A DNA stretch of 64,000 nucleotides from Patescibacteria group bacterium (GTDB taxonomy: Bacteria; Patescibacteriota; Patescibacteriia; Magasanikbacterales; GWA2-37-8), in contig JBAZKA010000002.1 of assembly GCA_041651015.1 (NCBI GenBank), forward strand, positions 70,163 through 134,162, given 5' to 3'. Below the pieces are notes generated by a model. It saw only the letters and a program-made list of their open reading frames with translations, ran no database searches and was not told the origin of the DNA. Numbering within the stretch: the stretch's first letter is position 1; every line of letters starts with the position of its first letter. Below are positions 5,030 to 40,057 of the stretch, piece after piece. The translations under genes were made by a program, and so were the position numbers.

Positions 5030-6448
5030 ATGAACAATGCCGAAATTTGGCAGGCCGTACTCGGAGAACTAGAGCTTTCCATCTCAAAAGCGAACTTTGT
5101 CACCTGGTTCAAAAACACCGGTATCATTACTGTCCAAGACGGACAAGTGATTTTGTGCGTACCCAACAACTTTGCTCAGGCTTGGTTTGAAAAAAAATAT
5201 CATCAAATGATAATTAAGTCGTTGGAACGCATCATGGGTAAACCGGTGCGCCGATTAGAATATAAAATAGACAACATTAAAAATTTAGTGGAACAGGCGG
5301 CGGCAGATTTACAAAACACCGCGGTTGAATCCTACAACACCTACGCGGACATGGCCGCCTCAGTGAATTCCACTGAACGTTCCGCCCCTCAACGCGCAGC
5401 TTCGCAAAACGGTGTATTTGTATTAAATCCAAAATATACTTTTGAAACTTTTGTCGTCGGTTCCGGATCAGAACTGGCTTATGCCGCGGCCAAGGCCGTG
5501 GCCGAACGTCCGGGCGAGGCGTACAATCCGCTTTTCATTTATGGCGGTGTCGGTTTGGGCAAAACCCATTTGATCCAAGCCCTGGGTAATCAGGTTCTGA
5601 AAAATAATCCGGCGGCGCGCGTGCTTTATGTGACCGCCGAGAAATTTTCCAATGATTTTATTCAATCGGTCAAAGATGGCAATGCGAAAGATTTTCAAAA
5701 TCATTATCGCAATATTGATTTGCTCATGATTGATGATATCCAATTCATCGCCGGCAAAGATCGCACGCAAGAATCTTTTTTTCATACTTTCAACGAGCTA
5801 CACCAGCAGAACAAACAACTTGTGCTCACTTCGGATCGTCCACCCAAAGCCATACCGGCGTTGGAAGACCGTTTGAAGTCGCGTTTTGAGTGGGGGATGA
5901 TCGCGGATATCACCATGCCGGACTTTGAAACTCGCGTCGCTATTTTACAAAAGAAATGCGCTGAGAAAAATTTTATTGGTATGGACGAAAGAATTCTCTC
6001 CGCCATTGCCGCCACCATCCAATCAAACATCCGCGAACTGGAAGGCTCGCTTAATAAAATTATCGCTTACCATCAACTGAAAAACATTACCCCTTCCGTG
6101 GAATCGGTTAAATCCGTGCTTTCATCCATTGAGGCGGCCTCCATGAAACAATCTTTAACCGCTAAACAGGTCTTGGAGACAGTCGGCTCCTTTTACAGCA
6201 TTCAAGCCGACATGATTATCAACAAAAGCCGGGAAAAACGCGTTTCTTACCCGCGCCAAATCATTATGTATTTGCTCCGAGAAGAACTCAAGATGTCTTT
6301 TCCAAATATTGGCAATGAATTAGGCGGGCGCGATCACACTACCGCCATGCATGCTTGTGAGAAAATCCACAATGACTTGGATAATAACCCCAAGCTTAAG
6401 CAAGAAATTGAATTAATCAAGCAACGCTTGTATATAAATAATGTCTAA
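5030..6448 (+). CDS. dnaA: chromosomal replication initiator DnaA
   Basis: GGVGLGKTHL Walker A, DDIQF..GK Walker B/sensor, and a C-terminal DnaA-box-binding HTH. Confidence 0.95.
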   Translation: MNNAEIWQAVLGELELSISKANFVTWFKNTGIITVQDGQVILCVPNNFAQAWFEKKYHQMIIKSLERIMGKPVRRLEYKIDNIKNLVEQAAADLQNTAVESYNTYADMAASVNSTERSAPQRAASQNGVFVLNPKYTFETFVVGSGSELAYAAAKAVAERPGEAYNPLFIYGGVGLGKTHLIQALGNQVLKNNPAARVLYVTAEKFSNDFIQSVKDGNAKDFQNHYRNIDLLMIDDIQFIAGKDRTQESFFHTFNELHQQNKQLVLTSDRPPKAIPALEDRLKSRFEWGMIADITMPDFETRVAILQKKCAEKNFIGMDERILSAIAATIQSNIRELEGSLNKIIAYHQLKNITPSVESVKSVLSSIEAASMKQSLTAKQVLETVGSFYSIQADMIINKSREKRVSYPRQIIMYLLREELKMSFPNIGNELGGRDHTTAMHACEKIHNDLDNNPKLKQEIELIKQRLYINNV

Positions 6449-6735
6449 TTTTGTGTATAACTTGTGGAAAAGTCGTCATTAACTCTGGATAACTTTCTTT
6501 CCTCATCCACAGAAATAAGTTATCATGCACAGTAAAATTTCCAAACCGATTTTCCTCCACCGGATACTCACATCGCAAAAAATCGGTTATCCACAAAAGC
6601 GAAGTATAAATTTATTTGATCTCAGCCAAAAAAAGAAATTATCCCCACTATTAACACCCCTTATTATTACTATTATATAAAAATATATAAATAATAATTA
6701 ATATAATAAACCCGTAAGTGCATAACTTTTAATTT
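6449..6735. promoter_or_regulatory. oriC right half: DnaA boxes plus an AT-rich unwinding element between dnaA and dnaN
   Basis: tggataact (6486-6494), tcatccaca (6504-6512) and a perfect ttatccaca (6596-6604), then an AT-only run of about 70 nt at 6640-6720. Confidence 0.65.
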
Positions 6736-7860
6736 ATGAAATTTACCTGCATAAAAGAAAATCTGGTAAGCGCCCTCTCGCTCGTCACCGGCCTGGCGAC
6801 CAAGAGCGTTAACTTGCCGATCCTTTCTAATTTATTAATTCGCGCCGATGAACAAAAAGTGGAAATCATATCCACGAATTTGGAGTTGGCCATTGCGGTC
6901 ACGGTGCGGGCCAAAGTGGAAGCGCCAGGGACATTTACCGTGCCGGCTAGAACCCTGACGGATTTTATCAGTTTGTTGACTGACGAGAAGATTGATTTGG
7001 AATTAAAAGACAATGAATTGGTGGTCTCGTGCGGAAAATCTTCTACCAAAATTAAAGGCATGCCGGCTGATGAGTATCCGGTGATTCCCACACCCGGAGA
7101 CGGTCAAGGCTTTGTGGTGACGGCCGAGGACTTGCGTAAAGGCCTCTCACAAGTGAATATTGCGGCCGCGAGAACGGAAATTCGTCCCGAGCTCTCCGGT
7201 GTGCTTTTTGCCTTTAATTTGGAGAATAGCGGGCATTTAGTATTGGCCGCGACCGATAGTTATCGTCTGGCTGAGAAGAAAATTAAAATCCAACAAGGCA
7301 AGGAAAGTTTCCGGGTGATTGTGCCCGGACGCACGGCCCAAGAAATGAGCCATATCTTATCCGCCTCCAATGAGTTGGGTGATGAAAAAAGCGTACGGGT
7401 GATTTTGACTGATAACCAGATTGCTTTGAATTTTAACAGCGTGCAGATGATTTCACGTTTGGTGGAAGGGCAGTATCCTGATTACACGCAAATTATTCCG
7501 CGTGAGTTTAGAACTGAGGCGCGCTTTTCCGCGACTAAAATGATTAAGGAAATAAAAGCCGCCAGCTTGTTTACCACTATTGGAGTGAATGCGGTTAATT
7601 GCGATGTTATGCCCGAGGAAAATGAAATTAAAATCGCCTCCACTTCCACGCAGACCGGTGAATATAAATCCGGCCTGGAAGCGGAAATCAAAGGCGAGAA
7701 AAATTCCGTCTTACTCAATCATAAATATTTTCTGGACGGCCTTAATTGTATTTCCGGCGATGATGCCATACTCAAAATTGTGAATGGCGACAGCCCGTGC
7801 GTGTTGTCCGAACAAAGCGATGCCAATTATTTGTATATCGTGATGCCAATTAGACAGTAA
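6736..7860 (+). CDS. dnaN: DNA polymerase III beta sliding clamp
   Basis: 374 aa in a three-domain clamp pattern, with an N-terminus typical of DnaN (MKF..KE.L...L......SVNLPILSNLLI). Confidence 0.95.
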   Translation: MKFTCIKENLVSALSLVTGLATKSVNLPILSNLLIRADEQKVEIISTNLELAIAVTVRAKVEAPGTFTVPARTLTDFISLLTDEKIDLELKDNELVVSCGKSSTKIKGMPADEYPVIPTPGDGQGFVVTAEDLRKGLSQVNIAAARTEIRPELSGVLFAFNLENSGHLVLAATDSYRLAEKKIKIQQGKESFRVIVPGRTAQEMSHILSASNELGDEKSVRVILTDNQIALNFNSVQMISRLVEGQYPDYTQIIPREFRTEARFSATKMIKEIKAASLFTTIGVNAVNCDVMPEENEIKIASTSTQTGEYKSGLEAEIKGEKNSVLLNHKYFLDGLNCISGDDAILKIVNGDSPCVLSEQSDANYLYIVMPIRQ

Positions 7861-32290: not shown

Positions 32291-32377
32291 GGAAGGGTGG
32301 CTGAGCGGTCGAAAGCGACAGTCTTGAAAACTGTTGTCCATGAAAGTGGACCGTGGGTTCGAATCCCACCCCTTCCG
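32291..32377 (+). tRNA. tRNA-Ser (anticodon TGA), long variable arm
   Basis: Cloverleaf GGAAGGG / TGGCTGAGCGGTCGAAAGCG / ACAGT-CTTGAAA-ACTGT / long variable arm / GTGGG-TTCGAAT-CCCAC / CCCTTCC-G. Confidence 0.85.
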
Positions 32378-32380
32378 CAT

Positions 32381-32494: not shown

Positions 32495-32580
32495 GGAGAG
32501 ATGGCTGAGCGGTTGAAGGCACCGGTTTCGAAAACCGGCGTACTCAAAAGGTACCGTGGGTTCAAATCCCACTCTCTCCG
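32495..32580 (+). tRNA. tRNA-Ser (anticodon CGA), long variable arm
   Basis: Cloverleaf GGAGAGA / TGGCTGAGCGGTTGAAGGC / ACCGG-TTTCGAAA-ACCGG / long variable arm / GTGGG-TTCAAAT-CCCAC / TCTCTCC-G. Confidence 0.85.
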
Positions 32581-32584
32581 CACA

Positions 32585-32628: not shown

Positions 32629-33378
32629 TTATTTTTCCGGACTGATTTTATCAAACGCCCTCAATACTTCAAGCGGTAAAGCGAAGACAATCGTATTGGA
32701 TTGGTCTGACGAAACGTCGTTGATGGTGTTGAGTGTGCGCAAGTGAAGGGCGCCAGGTGCGGCCGATAAAATTTTGGCAGCCTCGGCCAGTTTGGTGGAG
32801 GCGATAAGCTCGCCTTCGGCGTTAATAATCACCGCGCGTTTTTCACGCTCTGCTTCGGCTTGCTTGGCAATAGTGCGTTGCATATCATCGGGCAAGATTA
32901 TATCTTTCAATTCCACGGTTTCCACGAGTACACCCCATTTATCCGTCATGCCTTCCACAATTTCTTTAATTCTGTCCGCGGCCGCATCGCGATTGGCCAA
33001 AAGTCCGTCTAGCTCCAATTCGCCAACTACATTGCGCATGGTGGTTTGCGCCAACTGCGAGACAGCGTATTGAAAATTTTCCACTTCCAATATCGCTTTG
33101 GACGAATTTACTACTTTGTAATAAATAACGGCATTGATCTTTGCGGATACATTATCTCGGGTGATGGCTTCTTGAAGCGGGACATCAACGGCTTTGGTGC
33201 GAATATCCACTTTGGTCAGGCTTTGGATGATCGGAAAGACCAGATGCCAGCCCGGTTCCAAAGATTTGTAATATTTGCCGAGAAAGAATTTTACACCCCT
33301 CTGATATTGCTCCACTTGGCGGATTGACCGCAAGACCAGCAATAAAATTAGGAATAGCAGTACGTATATAAATTGCAT
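32629..33378 (-). CDS. SPFH/band-7 (stomatin-prohibitin-like) membrane protein
   Basis: N-terminal TM segment, an SPFH core, and a C-terminal Ala/Glu-rich coiled coil (QRTIAKQAEAEREKRAVIINAEGE). Confidence 0.85.
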   Translation of the reverse strand: MQFIYVLLFLILLLVLRSIRQVEQYQRGVKFFLGKYYKSLEPGWHLVFPIIQSLTKVDIRTKAVDVPLQEAITRDNVSAKINAVIYYKVVNSSKAILEVENFQYAVSQLAQTTMRNVVGELELDGLLANRDAAADRIKEIVEGMTDKWGVLVETVELKDIILPDDMQRTIAKQAEAEREKRAVIINAEGELIASTKLAEAAKILSAAPGALHLRTLNTINDVSSDQSNTIVFALPLEVLRAFDKISPEK

Positions 33379-33496
33379 ATGTTTGCATTTATTGGCTTAA
33401 GCGCCATTGGTTTTATTTTACACCGTTTAGTATATTTGACAACCCCGCCATCATATTGGGCATAAAATAGGAATTTGTGCTATAATATATTAAGAA

Positions 33497-33525
33497 GCCC
33501 CGAGAGGCACGGGAGCTTTTTTTAT
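33497..33525 (+). promoter_or_regulatory. leader hairpin plus T-run immediately after the potD-like promoter (possible attenuator)
   Basis: A TGTGCTATAAT -10 at 33471-33486, then cccg-agaggca-cggg and AGCTTTTTTTATTT before the ATG. Confidence 0.35.
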
Positions 33526-33535
33526 TTGAAAATAT

Positions 33536-34609
33536 ATGAAAACGCGAAAAATAATATTTACGGTCGGTGTGGTAGCCGTAATTTTGGTCATCATTGCCGC
33601 GGCAGTAATTATTTTATGGCCAAAGAAAAAACTTTCCGCCGAATTGAATGTTTACAATTGGACGGAGTATTTATCGCCCGAGGTCATTCTTGGATTTGAA
33701 AAAGAATATGGCGTAAAAATTAACATGCATTATTATGATGATGAATTCATCATGCTTCATGAACTGGAAAATAATCCGAATACGGATAAATACGATTTGA
33801 TTGTCGCCGGTAATTCCATCATGGGGCGGTTAATTGAATCTGATTTGCTGGCTTCAATTAATGCCAAGAATATACCGAATTTAAAAAATATTGGCAGTGA
33901 ATTTAAAGACACGATATTTAATGCTAAAAATATTTACGGAGTTCCTTATTGTTGGGGCACGACCGGCATATTGGTAAACAAAAAGTTTATTCCCAATGCC
34001 GACAGTTGGGGTGTTTTGTGGAATAAAAAGTACGCGGGTAAAATTTGCATGTTAAGCGATCCGGCCGAAGTTATCGGGGCGGCGGCCAAATATCTTGGTT
34101 TACCGCTTGTGCCACAGTCTGTGGAGCAAATGAGTCAGGTAAGAAATGTTTTGTTGACGCAGAAAAGCATCATCCGAGGATATTGCGACGATACCACTGC
34201 GTCTGACGGTGCGGTATCCGGAGAATTTTGGGCGGTGGAAGAATGGAGTGGGACGGCGGCGGACGCGATAATGCAAAATTCAGATCTGTCTTATATAATT
34301 CCCAAAGAGGGCGGAGCGAGCTGGTTTGACATGTTTGCCCTTCCGAAAAATGCCAAGAATAAATATACGGCCGAAGTTTTTCTGAATTATTTGAATCGTC
34401 CGGACGTTAACGCAAAAAATGTTGAATATGTGTTTTATGCCAGTTGTAATGAAGGGGCGAAGGAGTTTGTGAGCAAGGATATTTTGGATAATCAGATTAT
34501 TTATCCGTCAAAGGCGGTGATGAATCGTTTAGATTCTTATACTGATTTTATTGTTGATGACGAGGTGTATAAGATGCGGGATGAATTGTGGGTTGAATTA
34601 AATAGTTGA
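33536..34609 (+). CDS. spermidine/putrescine-type periplasmic substrate-binding protein (PotD/PotF family), orphan
   Basis: N-terminal signal anchor, then ELNVYNWTEY..P....FEKEYG.KIN....D.. and C-terminal features typical of PotD-type substrate-binding proteins. No permease or ATPase genes are adjacent. Confidence 0.8.
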   Translation: MKTRKIIFTVGVVAVILVIIAAAVIILWPKKKLSAELNVYNWTEYLSPEVILGFEKEYGVKINMHYYDDEFIMLHELENNPNTDKYDLIVAGNSIMGRLIESDLLASINAKNIPNLKNIGSEFKDTIFNAKNIYGVPYCWGTTGILVNKKFIPNADSWGVLWNKKYAGKICMLSDPAEVIGAAAKYLGLPLVPQSVEQMSQVRNVLLTQKSIIRGYCDDTTASDGAVSGEFWAVEEWSGTAADAIMQNSDLSYIIPKEGGASWFDMFALPKNAKNKYTAEVFLNYLNRPDVNAKNVEYVFYASCNEGAKEFVSKDILDNQIIYPSKAVMNRLDSYTDFIVDDEVYKMRDELWVELNS

Positions 34610-34698
34610 GATTATTCATATTTTGTCCTCTTCAGGATTTTAGTGTATAATATGGATAGAAGCTGCCCGATGCTCTCTGACACTGTAGCAGAATTCAT

Positions 34699-35364
34699 AT
34701 GAAAATTTTACTTGTTGAAGACGACAAAGATATTTTGGCCTTCTTGAGGGCGAGTTTGAAAACCGAGGGGTTTGTCGTGGACGCGACCGATGATGGCGAG
34801 CGCGGGATGGAAATGGCCCGCATCAATTCGTATGATTTGATAATTCTGGATTTAAATTTACCAAATAAAAATGGCGACGAAATTTGCCGAGATATTCGCG
34901 GACGCGGCAAAACGACTCCGATACTCATGCTCTCGGTGCAATCGTCTGTGAGCAATAAGGTTGACTTGTTGAATTCCGGAGCCGATGACTATGTTTGCAA
35001 GCCGTTTTCATTTGAAGAAGTGTTGGCGCGGATCAAAGCCCTTTTGCGTCGTCCCGCGGCCACATACAAAGAAACGCTTACATGCGCGGATCTGGTTATG
35101 GATTTGAACAAGAGAATAGTAAAACGGAACGGGAGGGAAATAAATTTGACCGGCAAGGAGTTTAACCTTTTAGAATATTTGTTGCGCCACAAAGGCGAAA
35201 TTGTGCCAAAGACCGCGATATTGGAAAATGTTTGGGACTCGGAAGTGGATTTATTTTCCAATGCTATTGAGACGCACGTGTTAAATTTAAGAAAAAAATT
35301 AAACCGCGCCAGTTCGGATGATTTGATTAAGACTGTTTCCGGACGCGGCTATCGCATTGGATAA
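34699..35364 (+). CDS. OmpR-family response regulator
   Basis: Receiver domain (DD...D phospho-acceptor, ILMLS, K) plus a winged-helix output (trans_reg_C). Confidence 0.9.
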   Translation: MKILLVEDDKDILAFLRASLKTEGFVVDATDDGERGMEMARINSYDLIILDLNLPNKNGDEICRDIRGRGKTTPILMLSVQSSVSNKVDLLNSGADDYVCKPFSFEEVLARIKALLRRPAATYKETLTCADLVMDLNKRIVKRNGREINLTGKEFNLLEYLLRHKGEIVPKTAILENVWDSEVDLFSNAIETHVLNLRKKLNRASSDDLIKTVSGRGYRIG

Positions 35365-35623
35365 TCAAAACAAAGGTCGGCTTTAATTCACCGTTATTAA
35401 CCCGTAGATTTTCTAGAAAAACTGGGCATTAATAATATGGACAAGCTTATCAAAAAGTTTCTAACAAGCAAGGCGGCGCGTAACGGAGTTGAATTGACTT
35501 TGTTCGTGGCTGCGGCAATGAGCGCGGGTTATCCCTGGAGAGGAACGCTCGAATAGTGCTTTTGTTTGGTTTCTGTTATCTATGAGCACTCCTTTCTAAA
35601 GAGGGAGTGCTTACTACTTTAAT

Positions 35624-37039
35624 ATGTTGAAGGAACTATATTGGAAATTTTTACGACCGAACTCTGTAGATGAGGACTTACAGAGGCGAGAATACATCTT
35701 AAATATTTTGCTTTCCTCGTCAATAATTTTGTTGATTCTCGCAAATATTATATGTTTTTTTGATCGCGTATTTTTATATAGCTCAACCCTTGAACAAAAT
35801 TCTGTGCCACCTTTTATTGTGGTTGGGTTATTATTATTTTTTGTAGGTTTATATATTTTGTCGCGCAAAAAGTTTGTCAAAATTTCGGCGGTAATATATG
35901 TGTCAGTATATTATTTTGTATCAATATATTTATCCAGTAGATATGGAATAGGGCTTGGCACCGGTCTGTTATTTTATATTTTAACAATAGTAATATCCGG
36001 AATTTTGGTCAGCGCTAAGTTTTCTTTTGTTGCCGCAGTGATTTCGTCTGTTGGGATAATGTTTATAAATATTTTTCACAACGAAGGGGTTCTTGCGCGC
36101 TTATCATATTGGGAGGGGATGAAATTGGATGGTATTGATGTTATATTATTTTCCATCGTCTTTTTCATCGTTGCCACAGTCTCATGGCTGTCCAATCGCG
36201 AAATAGAAAAATCATTGACTCGGGCGCGCAAGTCCGAAGCCGAATTAAAAGAAGAAAAAGACATGTTGGAAATTCGGGTGGAAGAAAGGACACAAGATTT
36301 GCAAAAAGCGCAGATGGAAAGATTGGTACAATTATCCCGCTTCGCGGAAATGGGGCGTTTGTCCGTGGGTTTGTTTCACGATTTGGTCAGTCCGTTAACG
36401 GCTGTTTCTCTTGGCGTGGAACGCATCAAAAATACACAAACCTCGAGTGAGGGATGTCATTTGATTGAAGCGGATTTGGAGCGGGTATTAAAAACCACCG
36501 AACGCATCGGTAAATTTATTACTTCTGTACGCAAGCAAATTTCCGGCAACCAAACCCGAGAAATATTTTCAGTAAATCAGGAAATCAAAGACGCGATTCA
36601 ACTCATGGCTTATCCGGCGCGCCAAGCCGACGTTTCAATCATCTTTTCCGAAAATAAAAATATTGAGACCGCCGGCAGTCCGATTAGGTTCAGCCAGATG
36701 ATTGTCAATTTAATTTCCAATGCCGTGGATTCTTTCCCACCGATGAATCCGGCCGAGCTGGGGCGCGTCAGTCGCGAGATTGTCATTCGTTTGGCCGAGG
36801 ACGCGGGCCAAATTATGTTGTCCATTGGCGATAATGGACGCGGGATTTCGGCGGACATTCAAGATAAAATTTTTGAACCGTTTTTTACCACCAAAGATTC
36901 CAAGCATGGCACCGGCGTGGGCTTGTCCATGGTCAAAAGCGTGGCCGAAATAGATTTCCACGGTAAAGTTATGTTTGAGAGCGAGGAAAATAAAGGCACA
37001 AAATTTATCATTACATTTCCAAAAGATCTAAAAATTTGA
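35624..37039 (+). CDS. sensor histidine kinase (membrane, five or six TM)
   Basis: Polytopic N-terminal region, coiled coil, H-box HDLVSPLTAV, and N/G1/G2 boxes (NLISNAVDS, DNGRGI, GTGVGLS). Confidence 0.85.
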   Translation: MLKELYWKFLRPNSVDEDLQRREYILNILLSSSIILLILANIICFFDRVFLYSSTLEQNSVPPFIVVGLLLFFVGLYILSRKKFVKISAVIYVSVYYFVSIYLSSRYGIGLGTGLLFYILTIVISGILVSAKFSFVAAVISSVGIMFINIFHNEGVLARLSYWEGMKLDGIDVILFSIVFFIVATVSWLSNREIEKSLTRARKSEAELKEEKDMLEIRVEERTQDLQKAQMERLVQLSRFAEMGRLSVGLFHDLVSPLTAVSLGVERIKNTQTSSEGCHLIEADLERVLKTTERIGKFITSVRKQISGNQTREIFSVNQEIKDAIQLMAYPARQADVSIIFSENKNIETAGSPIRFSQMIVNLISNAVDSFPPMNPAELGRVSREIVIRLAEDAGQIMLSIGDNGRGISADIQDKIFEPFFTTKDSKHGTGVGLSMVKSVAEIDFHGKVMFESEENKGTKFIITFPKDLKI

Positions 37040-38871
37040 ATATGAACAATATCGCGAATAGACTGTCTAACGCGCAAATGCCGAGTGGCGCATTCGCGGG
37101 CAACGACGGTCAAGAATCGGTGATTATTACGGCCGGCATCTTATTGTTTTTGAATCGGTTGTCGGATGATGGTGATATCGCGCGAATAAAGAAAGGCGCG
37201 GGAAGTTGGCTTTTGAGCAAGAGAAATGAACAATGGTTGGTGGATAAAAATTTGGGTGTGAATTTTTTGGCGTTGACAGCGGTTTTTGAAAACGACAAAA
37301 ATATTTTTGATGGCACGGCTTTGGCAAAAATTTTAGTGGCGCTGTCCTCGTCCGAAGCCAAAGAAGGCGGGCCGTATTTTTCCGAACTTAATAGCGAAAA
37401 TAAAAAAATTGATTTGGGTGTTAATGCCGCTATCGCGCGGTTTTTGTTTTTGCACGAGGTGGAACTGCCGGAATTGACCGGGCTATTTGCCACGGCGATG
37501 GAAACCAAAGTTTTTTCATCCGAAATTTTTGCCGATGAATATTATGTAATTTATCTTCTTGCCGGATTTTATCGCGGTGAGCGCGCTGATAAGTTGTTTG
37601 AACATGTCCTTGCGCAAATTCGCGGAAGACATTTAGATTCGCCATTTGATAAATTGTTGGCGTTTGTTTCGCTCTTTCATCTTGGCGCAACGCCGGAATT
37701 GTTGCGCGAGTCGGCAGAAATACTTAATTTGGCAGAAATTTTATCCAACGATAATTTGAATCCAATAGGCGAAAAAAATTTATTTGTCACACCGGAATTA
37801 TTTTTGGCTCTTTGCATAACGGCGAATGAAACCATGGAAAAACAGGCCGGATTAATAAAAGACGAAACAAACGGCGCGCCGGATGATCAAGAAAAATTTA
37901 TTATGGAATTGATTTTAGAGAAGGCGGAAAAACGTTTTGCCAATCTCGTTGGCGGGATGAAAGAAATTGCTTGGCGCGAAATTACCAAAACTATTTCCCA
38001 AAATCCCGACCGACAGATGTCGCTCATGCCGTATTGTATGAAGCAAGCGTTGGGTAAAAACGGCCGGAAGATTTCCGATGACACAGTGGCCGAGATGGGG
38101 TTGGCTAATATTTTTTATTGGACCGCCTTTATTATTTATGATAATTTTTGGGATGTGGATGAAGAAGCCGACCCTCGGACATTACCAACCGCAAATTTAT
38201 ACGCTCGTCATTATTCAAATTTTTTCCACTCGCTCCTGCCGGAACGCACCGGTTTCAGAGAATTTTTTCGCGAGTTGATGGACAATCTGGATGCGGCTAA
38301 TACTTGGGAAACGACTTATTGCCGAACAAAAGTCGCGGGCAATCATTTTGTCGTTCCGGATTTTTTGCCGGATTACGGCGATTATGAGATGAAATACCGT
38401 CCGGCCTCCGGGCACGCGCTCGGATCCGCGGCCATGCTCTATATGCTCGGGTATAACGAAGATTCATCGGAGGTAAAAAATTTATTGGATTATTTTCGCT
38501 ACTATTTGATTGCCATGCAAATCAATGATGACGCTCATGATTGGGAGGAAGATATGGCGCGCGGACATTTAAGCACGGTGGTGGTGATGCTTTTGGAGGA
38601 CTTCAAACAAAAATATCCCGGTATCAGAGAAATTGATTTAGTTGAAGATAAAGAAAGCCTGCGTCAGATATTTTGGTTCAAGACAATTAAGCGCGCTTGC
38701 GAAACAGCCGTGCATTTTACGAATAAATCCCGTTTGGCTTTGCACACCATGAAAACACTGGAAAATTTTGCGCCACTGGAACGTTATATAGATATTACCG
38801 AGGCCGCGGCTCAAAAGGCTTTAAAAGAACAAAAAATGAGCGTGGAATTTTTAGGTGAGTTCAAGGATTAA
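37036..38871 (+). CDS. 611-aa cytoplasmic protein with isoprenoid-synthase-like Asp-rich motifs, translationally coupled to the kinase
   Basis: Its ATG overlaps the kinase stop (ATGA). The C-terminal half has YDNFWDVDEEAD and, about 140 residues later, INDDAHDWEED (DDxxD / NSE-like spacing). The N-terminal half is a helical-repeat domain. Confidence 0.5.
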   Translation: MNMNNIANRLSNAQMPSGAFAGNDGQESVIITAGILLFLNRLSDDGDIARIKKGAGSWLLSKRNEQWLVDKNLGVNFLALTAVFENDKNIFDGTALAKILVALSSSEAKEGGPYFSELNSENKKIDLGVNAAIARFLFLHEVELPELTGLFATAMETKVFSSEIFADEYYVIYLLAGFYRGERADKLFEHVLAQIRGRHLDSPFDKLLAFVSLFHLGATPELLRESAEILNLAEILSNDNLNPIGEKNLFVTPELFLALCITANETMEKQAGLIKDETNGAPDDQEKFIMELILEKAEKRFANLVGGMKEIAWREITKTISQNPDRQMSLMPYCMKQALGKNGRKISDDTVAEMGLANIFYWTAFIIYDNFWDVDEEADPRTLPTANLYARHYSNFFHSLLPERTGFREFFRELMDNLDAANTWETTYCRTKVAGNHFVVPDFLPDYGDYEMKYRPASGHALGSAAMLYMLGYNEDSSEVKNLLDYFRYYLIAMQINDDAHDWEEDMARGHLSTVVVMLLEDFKQKYPGIREIDLVEDKESLRQIFWFKTIKRACETAVHFTNKSRLALHTMKTLENFAPLERYIDITEAAAQKALKEQKMSVEFLGEFKD

Positions 38872-38887
38872 AACATAATCAACCGTA

Positions 38888-38927
38888 AAAAAATTCCGTC
38901 CCGCAGAATGCAGAACGGAATTTTTTA
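38888..38927. terminator. bidirectional rho-independent terminator
   Basis: attccgt-N15-acggaat flanked by A-run and T-run. Confidence 0.7.
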
Positions 38928-38939
38928 ATTGAATTTGTT

Positions 38940-39377
38940 TTAGTCCAAGAATTTGAATTTGTCCGCGAAATCTCCGATGAACGGCAGTTTTTCTTTTTTG
39001 CCGTTGGCCGCATTGATAATGCCGATGATGGCAAAGACCAAAGTGGCGAGACCAAGCAAGCTGAAAAGCCATGACCAAGTCAAAATATAATACCAAGGAA
39101 TCATGGCGCGAATAATCCAAAGGATGGCTGAAACAGCAAAAATTAAAAATCCTTGTTTGACGTGGAATCTGACAAAAGGATCCTTTTTTGCGTCGGTCAA
39201 AAGCGGAATAAAGAATAAAATGTAAGCGACAATGGCCATGCCGGTGTTCGGCTCTCCATTCGCCGGAGCGGGTGAAGTCGGTTGGGGCGCCACCGGTGTC
39301 GGCGTCGGTTGTTGAGGCGTCATCGGCGGCACGGGTGTGCTTACCGGCGCCACCGGTTGATTATTCTGCTCGTCCAT
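38940..39377 (-). CDS. DUF4870-like membrane protein with a Pro/Thr-rich N-terminus
   Basis: YILFFIPLLT...KDPFVRFHVKQG.L is the DUF4870 pattern. Confidence 0.6.
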   Translation of the reverse strand: MDEQNNQPVAPVSTPVPPMTPQQPTPTPVAPQPTSPAPANGEPNTGMAIVAYILFFIPLLTDAKKDPFVRFHVKQGFLIFAVSAILWIIRAMIPWYYILTWSWLFSLLGLATLVFAIIGIINAANGKKEKLPFIGDFADKFKFLD

Positions 39378-39409: not shown

Positions 39410-40057
39410 TTATTGATGAGAATTTCCTTGCTCGGCGTTGATAACAATAGCGGTAATGACTTGCTCGTCCTTGTTAAAGCCGATGGTGTAGGTGAAATTA
39501 TCTTTTTGCGCCATGATGGACGCGGCCTCGTTTTGTTGGATGTTGGTAATAATTTTCATGCCGCGATTTTCCATTTCTTTGGCAATGGAACCGGCGTCTG
39601 ATACGGCCACAAGTTTGGGCAAAGTATATTGAAAGATGCCAGAGCCGCTGTTCATGCCCATATAGCCACTGACAAAACTTGAGAGTTTGTAATCATCGTA
39701 GACTGCCTTGATGATTCCGCCGACTTCATCAGCAATGGCCTTGTGCGTGCTGTCGCCGATTTCTTGATTTTCAGCATTGGCAAAAATTTCAGCCGGTGTT
39801 AATTCTTTACCCTCATCGCCGGAGTTTTCGTTATTCATCATTTGGCCTCCAGCTTCAATGCCCAAGTTTTTGAGCATGTTTTGAGCGGTTCGGTCTGCGC
39901 GCCAGCGCGAAAAGGCCGTGTATCCAATGCCGATAACCAGAATCGCGGCAATGGCAATTATAAGGGCTGTTTTATTATTATTTCCGCCTGTTGGAGTTGT
40001 GGTTGGTGTGCTCGGCGCCACTGGAGCGGAGGGCGTCGGATTTACGTTATTTTCCAT
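39410..40057 (-). CDS. hypothetical membrane-anchored protein
   Basis: Pro/Thr-rich N-terminus, one TM segment, then a soluble domain. No family recognised. Confidence 0.5.
   Translation of the reverse strand: MENNVNPTPSAPVAPSTPTTTPTGGNNNKTALIIAIAAILVIGIGYTAFSRWRADRTAQNMLKNLGIEAGGQMMNNENSGDEGKELTPAEIFANAENQEIGDSTHKAIADEVGGIIKAVYDDYKLSSFVSGYMGMNSGSGIFQYTLPKLVAVSDAGSIAKEMENRGMKIITNIQQNEAASIMAQKDNFTYTIGFNKDEQVITAIVINAEQGNSHQ

Follow-up and report, generated by a model that had tools for sequence, protein, structure and literature searches.

A conserved regulator, peptide, kinase and isoprenoid-synthase-like gene cassette in Patescibacteria, most likely a modified-peptide signalling system of the ComQXPA/PalPXQ type

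The combination of a Trp-containing peptide, a trans-IDS-like prenyltransferase and a kinase is known from ComQXPA and PalPXQ, and fusions of a prenyltransferase and a cyclase acting on a peptide Trp are known from ChrPC. Tryptophan is the target of all characterised trans-IDS-like peptide prenyltransferases, ComQ and PalQ adjoin a precursor peptide and a histidine kinase, and in ChrPC a trans-IDS-like peptide prenyltransferase domain is fused to an MstE-like cyclase (PMC13290415; PMC10853753). The Trp is the third to fourth residue from the end in ComX and the second in StheX (PMC5331326; bioRxiv 10.64898/2026.08.29.745113).

The locus described here was found in a window of 64,000 nucleotides, the whole stretch of DNA analysed, from a Patescibacteria group bacterium, with all features on the forward strand. 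The four co-directional ORFs of the initial annotation were recovered at 33536–34609, 34699–35364, 35624–37039 and 37036/37042–38871. A fifth gene, overlooked there, is a precursor-like ORF of 39 amino acids (35437–35556, MDKLIKKFLTSKAARNGVELTLFVAAAMSAGYPWRGTLE) within the 260-bp gap between the regulator and kinase genes, and tells more about the locus than any other element. The junction between the kinase gene and the last gene, ORF4, reads AAAATTTGAATATG and does not contain the ATGA overlap that had been reported. ORF4 can start at a TTG at 37036, overlapping the TGA stop (TTGA), or at an ATG at 37042, 2 nt past the stop; the length of 611 aa given earlier holds for the TTG, while the public gene call takes the ATG and gives 609 aa.

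The gene at 34699–35364 encodes an OmpR-family response regulator as annotated (Pfam Response_reg 1.4e-28, Trans_reg_C 2.2e-24); it opens the conserved cassette and is presumably the output of the system. The histidine kinase (35624–37039; Pfam HATPase_c 1.7e-24) has its H-box at His252, and residues 220–468 are covered by NCBIfam alignments (AtoS, FixL and others). Hydropathy analysis gave five strong hydrophobic segments plus one more (about six TM helices) and outside loops all of 18 aa or less, in agreement with the earlier reading of five or six segments and no periplasmic domain; this polytopic kinase is presumed to be the membrane receptor. A peptide gene directly 5' of a polytopic kinase without an extracytoplasmic domain is found in Gram-positive peptide-pheromone systems. 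The kinase and regulator belong to other families than ComP/ComA (HisKA_3/GerE).

Gene order was compared in the 47 related loci whose upstream DNA was long enough. The order tiny ORF, six-TM kinase and ORF4 homolog on one strand was conserved in 45 of the 47, with the kinase homolog immediately 5' of ORF4 in 45 loci, and 41 of those loci have a co-directional OmpR-type regulator ahead of the tiny ORF. Five natural full-length kinase-ORF4 fusion proteins were found (P0012, P0015, P0016, P0020 and P0044), and the fusion locus L061 retains both regulator and peptide. Because of the conserved adjacency and these five fusions, the functional tie of ORF4 to the two-component system that had been suspected is real. 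Five parts make up the cassette (OmpR-type regulator, 39-aa peptide, six-TM kinase, ORF4 and cis elements near the peptide gene), which is conserved across ultra-small CPR bacteria. No earlier description of the cassette was found in the literature searched, in line with the claim of an undescribed module; as a claim of a new kind of module this was overstated, its logic being known from ComQXPA, PalPXQ and ChrPC.

The solute-binding protein gene (33536–34609) is a neighbour outside the conserved cassette. Its product is PotD/PotF-like with an N-terminal membrane anchor, and its annotation as a polyamine-type binding protein stands in so far as it is of the solute-binding type (SBP_bac_8, 8e-27). 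Which class of ligand it binds is uncertain, because the best NCBIfam matches (PotF/PotD at 1e-42) score 144 bits, far below the equivalog cut-offs of 582–636. As was also noted earlier, ABC partners are lacking: ORFs of at least 120 aa in the 64-kb window showed no ABC ATPase signatures, so the protein is an orphan here. Its adjacency, shared direction, PotD/PotF likeness and lack of an ABC partner would suit a model in which it senses an external polyamine via the kinase, in the style of TorT/TorS or LuxP/LuxQ, and thereby controls a prenyl or terpene enzyme. This model is very improbable. The expected conservation of gene order was borne out for regulator, kinase and ORF4 (plus the tiny ORF) but not for the binding protein: in all 53 other loci the surrounding 6 kb lacked a homolog of it (E ≤ 1e-5), and different genes (FMN_red, NUDIX, Metallophos) lie 5' of the regulator. 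The short outside loops of the kinase leave no docking domain for a binding protein, a promoter-like site (34623–34651) separates the binding-protein and regulator genes, and the conserved peptide gene is left out of account, in addition to the doubt about the ligand class itself.

An HMM built from four copies of the peptide matched in 45 loci (E 2.6e-24 to 7e-4), always on the cassette strand and just 5' of the kinase gene. The gene was also called by public pipelines, and the window holds only one copy. The peptide consists of a conserved N-terminal leader (consensus M-x-K-L-I-K-E-I-L-T-x-K), an invariant Pro33-Trp34 and a variable tail of five residues, with Trp as residue 34 in 40 of the 45 copies. 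Differences at the three codon positions were 0.45/0.32/0.66; with this highest variation at the third position and a median dN/dS of 0.30, the peptide is under purifying selection and a real gene. Its sole invariant nucleophile is the Trp, located second to seventh from the C-terminus and followed by a hypervariable tail, and the ComX, StheX and PalX substrates likewise carry a Trp near a hypervariable C-terminus. The likeness between the N-termini of ComX and the peptide is weak, at 2–3.6 bits, a score reached by 3–8 of 1000 shuffles.

ORF4 had no sequence matches in Pfam, NCBIfam or the PDB; PF00348, PF05952 (ComX) and all NCBIfam models were without match. A profile search returned 1,590 clusters at 50% identity (E ≤ 1e-3), and every source-named cluster is a 'hypothetical' Patescibacteria protein. 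The AF2 model (pLDDT 94.9, pTM 0.89) comprises two domains. The helical-repeat N-terminal half of the initial annotation is an (alpha/alpha)6 barrel (residues 1 to about 275, 37042–37866; residues 1–280 modelled alone, pLDDT 92.2). Its Foldseek matches in the PDB were drimenyl-PP synthase AsDMS (9m7f, E 1e-4, TMq 0.69), SsDMS, MstE (6sbc, TMq 0.60) and ent-CPP synthase (5bp8), together with generic toroids such as GH76; with its best matches in that class, including MstE, the predicted barrel is class II terpene cyclase-like. E105, G109-G110-P111-Y112, D124 and N128 are conserved in it and the class II DxDD motif is absent. Short ORF4 homologs retain only residues of about 70–155 of the barrel; without half of it, prenyl cyclisation cannot be general.

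The C-terminal domain (residues about 282–609, 37885–38868) adopts, in the AlphaFold model, the class I isoprenoid-synthase fold that had been proposed, and is trans-isoprenyl diphosphate synthase-like by Foldseek (probability 1.00, TM 0.66–0.71 on target, about 330 columns). Matches were GGPP, solanesyl-PP and octaprenyl-PP synthases (5jfq GGPPS, E 3e-4; 9jsc, TMt 0.70; 5ze6) and the all-alpha indole prenyltransferase Ord1 (9v4i, 9v4h and 9v4g at ranks 5, 7 and 10), which is as close as the canonical synthases.

Two Asp-rich motifs were confirmed, YDNFWDVDEEA at 38137–38169 and QINDDAHDWEEDMARGH at 38518–38568, separated by 129 residues instead of the roughly 140 first estimated and both invariant in 115 homologs. 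In the first motif (FARM, D367-N-F-W-D371, 38140–38154; family consensus DDFWDEDE) D367 and D371 are invariant in the 115 sequences, position 368 is D in 90% and D373/E374 occur in 90% or more. The second motif with its upstream Gln (SARM, Q493-I-N-D496-D497-A-H-D500-W-E-E-D504, 38518–38553) aligns with the IPPS motif IAFQLQDDYLD. Its invariant residues are Q493, D496, D497, D500, D504 and G508, and the following R507-G-H509 resembles IPPS region VII. RRG is absent after the FARM of ORF4, and by inspection GGKRxR and RRG are absent from the family consensus and present in the canonical synthase P0334. These two motifs bind IPP, and without them chain elongation looks unlikely. A divergent housekeeping trans-prenyl diphosphate synthase (e.g. 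for FPP/GGPP of the cell-wall lipid carrier), next to the two-component system by chance, would share the trans-IDS fold and both DDxxD motifs, and the window yielded no further canonical synthase. This origin is nevertheless highly unlikely, as ORF4 misses PF00348 entirely, lacks the IPP-binding motifs and carries an extra barrel of 275 aa; strict linkage to, and sometimes fusion with, a kinase and Trp peptide is a pattern unexpected of a housekeeping enzyme.

The hhalign alignment of ORF4 with ComQ runs colinearly across 221 columns and brings both motifs into register, but is weak and not significant (probability 3%); ComQ DDLEDEDN aligns with the FARM. The second motif differs, being a canonical DDxxD in ORF4 and N/G-D-x-x-x in ComQ and StheQ, which need that form; ComQ is crippled when this Asn is changed to Asp (PMC5331326). 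The objection loses some force with Ord1, an enzyme that prenylates indole although it carries D219-D220 at the equivalent sites (PMC12510300). The Gln and first SARM Asp are the two residues suggested to hold the indole NH in place in Trp prenyltransferases of the trans-IDS-like type (PMC13290415; PMC12510300).

The fully canonical FARM and SARM are also like those of enzymes ionising free prenyl diphosphates, and the architecture of barrel plus class I domain is reminiscent of terpene synthases with several domains (the Foldseek matches included taxadiene and miltiradiene synthases, at low TM). ORF4 might thus act on small isoprenoids or be a non-catalytic isoprenoid-diphosphate sensor on the kinase, the 39-aa product being a membrane-associated kinase modulator comparable to MgrB/PhoQ. 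Fusion at the kinase C-terminus suits a regulatory partner, the fixed Met1-Trp34 length a structural micro-protein, and many peptides have a hydrophobic run of 16–17 residues ahead of Pro-Trp (best-window hydropathy up to 2.0). This alternative is a serious one, if rather unlikely. The middle segment is polar in about 10 of the 45 peptides (e.g. L045, L032, L044 and L019; best 17-aa hydropathy 0.15–0.8), so a TM helix is no conserved property, and the Trp near a hypervariable C-terminus is the signature of the ComX, StheX and PalX substrates. The missing GGKRxR/RRG speak against elongation, ORF4 has neither a class II DxDD nor a terpene synthase Pfam match, and kinase sensor domains sited after the ATPase domain are unusual. 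Under this alternative ORF4 could be a terpene synthase, a lipid-forming enzyme or a sensor domain, as cytoplasmic input of the kinase or as regulated output. The kinase-enzyme fusion in itself fits a regulatory or a sensory role for ORF4 equally well.

By analogy, the cassette is most likely a lipid-tagged peptide signalling system of the ComQXPA/PalPXQ type, with ORF4 the presumed peptide maturase. That ORF4 prenylates Trp34 and may cyclise the prenyl chain, with the kinase sensing the product, is given a probability of roughly 0.57. The conserved leader would be bound by ORF4, by which Trp34, at a fixed distance from Met1, would be positioned in the class I active site; a Mg2+-bound prenyl diphosphate donor, held by the two Asp-rich motifs, would be ionised and its prenyl group transferred to the indole. 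In long forms, including the present ORF4, the barrel may then cyclise the chain, as the ChrPC C domain does. We infer that, with leader removal, the lipidated peptide would be exported or partition into the membrane and be detected by the kinase membrane domain; the conserved neighbourhood of the cassette includes no exporter or leader protease, and no prenyl diphosphate source was found within the 64-kb window. Phosphorylation of the regulator by the kinase would then change transcription of a putative regulon, possibly including the peptide's own promoter. If true, CPR bacteria at large would possess an analogue of ComQXPA, PalPXQ and ChrPC.

Two cis elements flank the peptide gene. The AAGGTCGG box (35373–35380) is located 9 nt past the regulator stop and 57 nt ahead of the peptide ATG, and 38 of 45 loci have a box [AG]GTCG[AGT] 26–82 nt (mostly 31–51) ahead of the peptide start, which in one clade lies 7 nt past a TATACT −10 box. 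Only the GTCG core is invariant, RNAalifold gave no consensus RNA structure at the box, and the AAGGTCGG 8-mer occurs in the window at chance frequency, without enrichment; it is possibly a promoter-proximal or 5'-leader control element. Between the peptide and kinase genes a 13-bp stem-loop (35583–35613) may act as attenuator or transcript stabiliser. The RNA fold of 35545–35625 reached −22.8 kcal/mol (z = −3.7), and a similar hairpin (z < −2), often with a T-run after it, was observed at most 70 nt past the peptide stop in 23 of the 45 loci.

All four genes claimed by the initial annotation were found at their coordinates on the forward strand. The first (33536-34609) encodes a solute-binding protein with a membrane anchor (Pfam SBP_bac_8, 8e-27), the second (34699-35364) an OmpR-type response regulator with a Trans_reg_C match, the third (35624-37039) a histidine kinase (HATPase_c, 1.7e-24) and the fourth, ORF4 (37036/37042-38871), a protein of about 610 amino acids without a Pfam, NCBIfam or PDB sequence match. 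This gene list was right for the four genes, but it overlooked a 39-codon ORF inside the 260-bp 'gap' between regulator and kinase (35437-35556, forward strand), with the product MDKLIKKFLTSKAARNGVELTLFVAAAMSAGYPWRGTLE. The locus shows that micro-ORFs within 'intergenic gaps' are able to decide the interpretation of a locus. The kinase was described as having five or six transmembrane segments and no periplasmic sensor, in agreement with the approximately six hydrophobic segments, an H-box at His252 and outside loops of at most 18 residues. At the junction of kinase and ORF4, an ATGA overlap of stop and start codon had been reported, but the actual sequence is ...AAAATTTGAATATG... and the start of ORF4 is therefore either TTG at 37036 (a TTGA overlap) or ATG at 37042, 2 nt past the stop. 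The ATG was chosen in the public gene call, which results in 609 amino acids.

A word-indexed search retrieved 189 homologs of ORF4. With a profile search against 1.84 billion cluster representatives, 1,590 clusters (50% identity) were found at E <= 1e-3, 1,074 of them below 1e-30. Each hit with a named source was a 'hypothetical protein' of Patescibacteria/CPR, and a Patescibacteria-group MAG (P0001) was the match of the window. A comparison set of 53 further loci was fetched, 47 of which had enough upstream DNA. The peptide, the kinase and ORF4 occur together in 45 of these 47 loci, and a co-directional OmpR-type regulator lies upstream in 41 of the 45, with all four genes on one strand. The two exceptions, L022 and L023, carry an orphan ORF4 copy beside recA. 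Five homologs (P0012, P0015, P0016, P0020 and P0044) are fusions in which a complete 6-TM kinase is continuous into ORF4; one fusion locus retains the regulator and a 38-aa peptide. The conserved unit is regulator, peptide, kinase and ORF4. This cassette was also found in the cultured Minisyncoccus archaeiphilus PMX.108 (L043), and direct experiments are therefore feasible.

The solute-binding protein does not belong to this unit. According to the initial annotation, it would sense polyamines and act on the kinase in the manner of TorT/TorS or LuxP/LuxQ. Its best NCBIfam matches are indeed PotF and PotD (about 1e-42), but it scores 144 and 141 bits where the equivalog cut-offs are 636 and 582, and membership extends only to the general SBP_bac_8 family. 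The protein was also correctly seen as lacking ABC partners: a potABC partner was sought, but an ABC ATPase signature is absent from all ORFs of at least 120 aa in the 64-kb window, which leaves the binding protein an orphan there. No homolog was found in any of the 53 other loci and the gene upstream of the regulator differs between loci, which makes the binding protein a chance neighbour. Moreover, docking of the TorT/TorS or LuxP/LuxQ type needs a periplasmic kinase domain, whereas the outside loops are too short here (at most 18 residues). The proposed sensing was not borne out and is very improbable.

In the first three loci examined, a gene-caller ORF of 35-38 aa was present between regulator and kinase, each time with a product like the window peptide (3/3). 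An HMM was built from these four peptides, and the copies in the 45 loci matched with E values from 2.6e-24 to 7e-4, always on the cassette strand and directly 5' of the kinase gene. The copies are 34-40 aa in length with the consensus M-x-K-L-I-K-E-I-L-T-N-K-x-x-R-N...G-x-P-W, followed by 1-6 variable residues. Pro-Trp is invariant, and the Trp is exactly residue 34 in 40 of the 45. Between pairs of copies, the first, second and third codon positions differed at 0.45, 0.32 and 0.66 per site, and the median dN/dS was 0.30 (NG86), from which it is concluded that the peptide gene is translated and under purifying selection. Many copies have a hydrophobic middle segment, but in about ten of the 45 it is polar, the best 17-aa hydropathy lying between 0.15 and 2.0. 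A transmembrane helix is therefore not a conserved property of the peptide, and the idea of an obligate TM micro-protein was weakened by this range.

Two elements flank the peptide gene. A strong GC-rich hairpin with a 13-bp stem is located between the peptide and kinase genes at 35583-35613 on the forward strand (-22.8 kcal/mol, z = -3.7). In 23 of 45 loci a hairpin was found in the 70 nt downstream of the peptide gene, often with a T-run after it; it may be an attenuator that raises the peptide-to-kinase transcript ratio. Upstream of the peptide gene, at 35373-35380 (forward strand), lies a conserved box, AAGGTCGG. In 38 of 45 loci an [AG]GTCG[AGT] box was present 26-82 nt (mostly 31-51) 5' of the peptide start, in one clade exactly 7 nt downstream of a TATACT -10 box. 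In some other lineages, the box is surrounded by inverted repeats peculiar to the lineage (such as GGATTC...GAATCC in L033 and AGCCTTT...AAAGGCT in L042). The box could be an operator of the regulator or a 5'-leader element. A structured RNA at the AAGGTCGR box was unsupported, as RNAalifold gave no consensus structure; there was no Rfam match in 33300-39200 and no enrichment of the box 8-mer within the window.

No annotation of ORF4 was obtained with Pfam and NCBIfam (E <= 0.1), with phmmer against the PDB or with a PDB profile search. An AlphaFold2 model based on a 115-sequence alignment (pLDDT 94.9, pTM 0.89) predicted two all-helical domains. In Foldseek, the C-terminal domain (residues ~282-609) matched PDB structures with probability 1.00 and a target-normalised TM of 0.66-0.71 across about 330 columns. 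These structures were the trans-polyprenyl diphosphate synthases 5jfq, 9jsc, 4jyx and 5ze6 (GGPPS, SPS, OPPS), with the all-alpha indole prenyltransferase Ord1 (9v4g, 9v4h, 9v4i) at ranks 5-10. The predicted model thus places this domain, at the level of the fold, in the class I isoprenoid synthase/trans-IDS superfamily, and the structure check bears out the isoprenoid-synthase-like half that had been recognised by eye. The two Asp-rich motifs noted before are likewise present, and their core Asp residues are invariant in 115 sequences. In the first motif (FARM, consensus YDDFWDEDE), D367 and D371 are invariant; in the second (SARM, QINDDAHDWEEDxxRGH), Q493, D496, D497, D500, D504 and G508 are. 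Their measured spacing is 129 residues instead of the approximately 140 given previously. In the predicted model, helices 346-370 and 476-499 carry them at their C-terminal ends. The SARM can be aligned position by position with the synthase motif IAFQLQDDYLD, and the DDFWD consensus of the FARM with DDLED of ComQ (DDLEDEDN).

On fold and motifs, ORF4 might be taken for a housekeeping prenyl diphosphate synthase, and no canonical enzyme of this kind was found in the window. In the polyprenyl synthetase family, however, IPP is bound by GGKRxR and RRG motifs. By inspection, ORF4 has neither GGKRxR nor, after the FARM, RRG; the consensus there is GNxDKQMSLM and DDFWDEDEAANP, whereas the canonical synthase P0334 has GGKRLRP and DGAPLRRG at the corresponding motifs. 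This argues against chain elongation. ORF4 also gave no match to the polyprenyl synthetase family HMM PF00348 (E <= 0.1), and a housekeeping role is hardly credible.

The N-terminal domain (residues 1 to ~275), previously noted as a helical-repeat half, is predicted to be an (alpha/alpha)6 barrel when modelled alone (pLDDT 92.2). In the PDB it is most similar to class II terpene cyclase domains, namely AsDMS 9m7f (E 1e-4, TMq 0.69), SsDMS, MstE 6sbc and ent-CPP synthase, with GH76 and other generic toroids ranking after these. No DxDD motif is present in the barrel. Conserved residues are E105, GGPY 109-112, D124 and N128. Of these, D124, which caps the N-terminus of an inner helix in the model, is only a candidate for the catalytic acid of a cyclase domain. 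Homologs of 430-470 aa keep only residues ~70-155 of the barrel.

The cassette was compared with authentic ComX, ComQ and comQXPA loci, which were retrieved for this purpose. Members of the ComQ family (IPR033965) perform a Mg2+-dependent prenyl transfer to C3 of Trp. As in ComQXPA, four co-directional and tightly packed genes for enzyme, pre-peptide, kinase and regulator are found on one strand (41 loci), and the kinase is polytopic without an extracytoplasmic sensor domain. The enzyme has a trans-IDS fold with a DDxxDED-type FARM (DDLEDEDN in ComQ, DDFWDEDE in ORF4). Like ComX, the precursor is small, with a Trp near a variable C-terminus as the sole conserved core residue, and, as in ComQ-family loci, the small ORF with a Trp in its C-terminal region lies beside the enzyme (45 loci; Pro-Trp, then 1-6 residues). 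There are also differences. The gene order is A-X-P-Q (regulator, peptide, kinase, enzyme) and not Q-X-P-A; the window kinase has no HisKA_3 match and the regulator is of the OmpR type, while the Bacillus loci have HisKA_3 (ComP) and GerE (ComA). ORF4 is twice as long as ComQ, with an additional barrel and a canonical SARM instead of a pseudo-SARM, and its precursor is shorter, 34-40 aa compared with 53-58 aa for ComX (PMC5331326). ComQ requires the pseudo-SARM N/G-D-x-x-x and is crippled by an Asn-to-Asp change (PMC5331326). Counted from the conserved Gln, the SARM of ORF4 is a canonical DDxxD (D496-D497-A-H-D500), and therefore lacks this ComQ-defining feature.

Homology with ComQ or ComX was not established. 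In hhalign, the ORF4 family alignment (A1) and a 20-sequence ComQ alignment were colinear with both motifs in register, at a probability of 3.3% and a pairwise E of 0.013. The likeness of the peptide HMM to ComX is confined to the first nine residues (MnkLIkeiL versus MQDLINYFL), and its score was reached in 3-8 of 1000 shuffles (p ~0.003-0.008). None of six CPR peptides matched PF05952 (ComX) at E <= 10. The system is therefore treated as an analogue, not as a family member. ComQXPA was found in Firmicutes only in a 2014 census (PMC4008528).

A second parallel is PalQ of Paenibacillus alvei, formerly mis-annotated as a terpene synthase and forming its own sequence cluster, which is clustered with the histidine kinase PalP and the precursor PalX, with a conserved C-terminal Trp (PMC10853753). 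Here too, kinase, Trp precursor and an enzyme with the class I fold of this prenyltransferase are found in one cluster. PalX, however, is an NHLP-type precursor of ~100 aa in which Trp is obligatorily last, whereas 1-6 residues follow the Trp in the cassette peptide, and, compared by description, PalQ is credited with neither a cyclase-like domain nor a kinase fusion (PMC10853753). A review groups ComQ and PalQ with the P domain of ChrPC as 'trans-IDS-like' peptide prenyltransferases and states that the characterised members all target tryptophan (PMC13290415).

In predicted architecture alone, ORF4 resembles ChrPC as portrayed in this review, a single protein combining a trans-IDS-like domain with a class II cyclase barrel of the MstE type. 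ChrPC and NctPC were reportedly described as maturases by Hubrich et al. (2024, Chem 10:3224). They are presented, in the same review, as bifunctional prenyltransferase-cyclase maturases of 'cyclic terpenoid' RiPPs; in ChrPC, which acts on an internal Trp, the MstE-like cyclase joined to the trans-IDS-like domain cyclises the transferred prenyl chain (PMC13290415). The barrel comes first in ORF4, the opposite of the order suggested by the name ChrPC. ORF4 also differs from ChrPC in the lack of a DxDD-type acid motif, and many of its relatives have half a barrel. The review mentions no two-component link for ChrPC (PMC13290415).

StheQ and Ord1 also represent an IPPS fold adapted to indole prenylation, with a Gln one helical turn before the SARM as in ORF4 (bioRxiv 10.64898/2026.08.29.745113; PMC12510300). 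Ord1 prenylates indole and has Q216...D219-D220; the SARM of ORF4 likewise opens with D-D, but keeps D496, D497, D500 and D504 where the Ord1 motif ends in Ala (PMC12510300). The Gln and the first SARM Asp are proposed in the review to be an indole-positioning pair (PMC13290415), and both are invariant in ORF4. StheX of Sphaerobacter thermophilus, the Trp of which is second from the C-terminus, resembles the cassette peptide, whereas StheQ has N215-D216, a pseudo-SARM without metal (bioRxiv 10.64898/2026.08.29.745113). No barrel domain is present in StheQ or Ord1, and the available texts mention kinase linkage for neither.

The most likely mechanism, to which we assign a probability of roughly 0.57, is that ORF4 is a maturase prenylating the peptide and that the product is sensed by the kinase. 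What was observed directly is the linkage, the fusions, the folds, the invariant motifs and the selection acting on the peptide. ORF4 would recognise the conserved peptide leader and place Trp34 in its class I site, where a prenyl group would be transferred to it from a Mg2+-bound diphosphate; in the long ORF4 forms, the barrel may cyclise the prenyl chain. The polytopic kinase would detect the resulting lipopeptide and signal via the regulator. We infer the chemistry, export, processing, sensing and regulon of the cassette. Alternatively, ORF4 could act on or bind free isoprenoids, in keeping with its canonical FARM and SARM, as input or output of the kinase, with the peptide as a kinase-associated micro-protein. 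Given the invariant Trp near the variable C-terminus of the peptide, this is less likely.

Much of bacterial diversity belongs to the Patescibacteria (CPR), whose genomes are tiny and which live mostly attached to other cells. The association of a large unannotated family with a regulator, a kinase of the receptor type and a micro-peptide under selection suggests a dedicated module for signal production and sensing, kept in many CPR lineages despite genome reduction. In the literature searched, no paper was found on peptide signalling, a ComX/ComQ-like system, a prenylating enzyme, RiPPs or peptide pheromones in Patescibacteria/CPR. The signalling logic is known and the lineage is new; judged from the sequences, its novelty consists of being unrecognised by current family models, tiny precursors, different kinase and regulator types and some kinase-maturase fusions. 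More tentatively, and with the odds against it, the cassette could be the main cell-to-cell signalling of Patescibacteria, between symbionts or between symbiont and host, through a terpenoid-bearing Trp lipopeptide acting on the 6-TM kinase within or across membranes. A cyclase-prenyltransferase maturase would then convert the 34-40-aa precursor into a prenylated Trp lipopeptide, cyclised in the long forms. In the fusion lineages the maturase would be physically part of the receptor, coupling signal production and sensing in one polypeptide; a receptor-maturase fusion in peptide pheromone systems has no mention in the papers compared. If the chemistry of the preferred prenylation mechanism is confirmed, Trp-prenylated peptide pheromones would reach beyond Firmicutes and Chloroflexi, and the family would offer biocatalysis a new, sequence-distinct peptide prenyltransferase lineage, possibly with a cyclase, and CPR biology a testable regulatory handle.

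Some further features were observed among the related loci. The orphan ORF4 homologs of 571 aa (L022:865-2580 and L023:5260-6975) have no kinase, regulator or peptide nearby. The L023 copy is flanked by recA and a tRNA-like stretch and by a large ORF which, by eye, resembles a restriction-modification methyltransferase. Its N-terminus, MNKLIKD..., resembles the peptide leader and could be the remnant of a deletion fusing the peptide start to ORF4, or chance. Although the cassette is otherwise CPR-specific, many MAG records bearing it are named 'uncultured Gammaproteobacteria' (L011, L012, L019, L021, L029, L036, L045, L049-L051), 'Omnitrophota' (L033), 'Pacearchaeota archaeon' (L015) or 'Bacteriovoracaceae' (L030), probably because automated taxonomy mislabelled Patescibacteria bins. 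Downstream of the cassette, L003 and the kinase-ORF4 fusion loci encode pairs of 62-63-aa proteins, of which several have weak Zn_ribbon_Com matches, and/or dCache_1-domain proteins (L061:4682-5400 and 6539-7636; L062:3526-4201; L003:10111-13353). These may be extra module members specific to one lineage.

Convergent to ORF4, on the reverse strand, the window encodes a DUF4870/Tic20-like small membrane protein (38940-39377) and a 215-aa protein without a family (39410-40057), both with Pro/Thr-rich N-termini. The same pair lies 3' of ORF4 in the closest relative, L060, and is absent in more distant loci. Two tRNA-Ser genes with anticodons TGA and CGA were found on the forward strand shortly before the locus (32291-32378 and 32495-32581), flanked by genes for a YgjP-like metallopeptidase and a Band_7/SPFH protein; the long ORFs in this region are spurious, being translations of the tRNA genes. 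The forward-strand ORF at 5030-6448 starts with MNNAEIWQAVLGELE..., has a Walker A motif and is DnaA-like by eye; if it is DnaA, the replication origin of the chromosome is probably near the window start.
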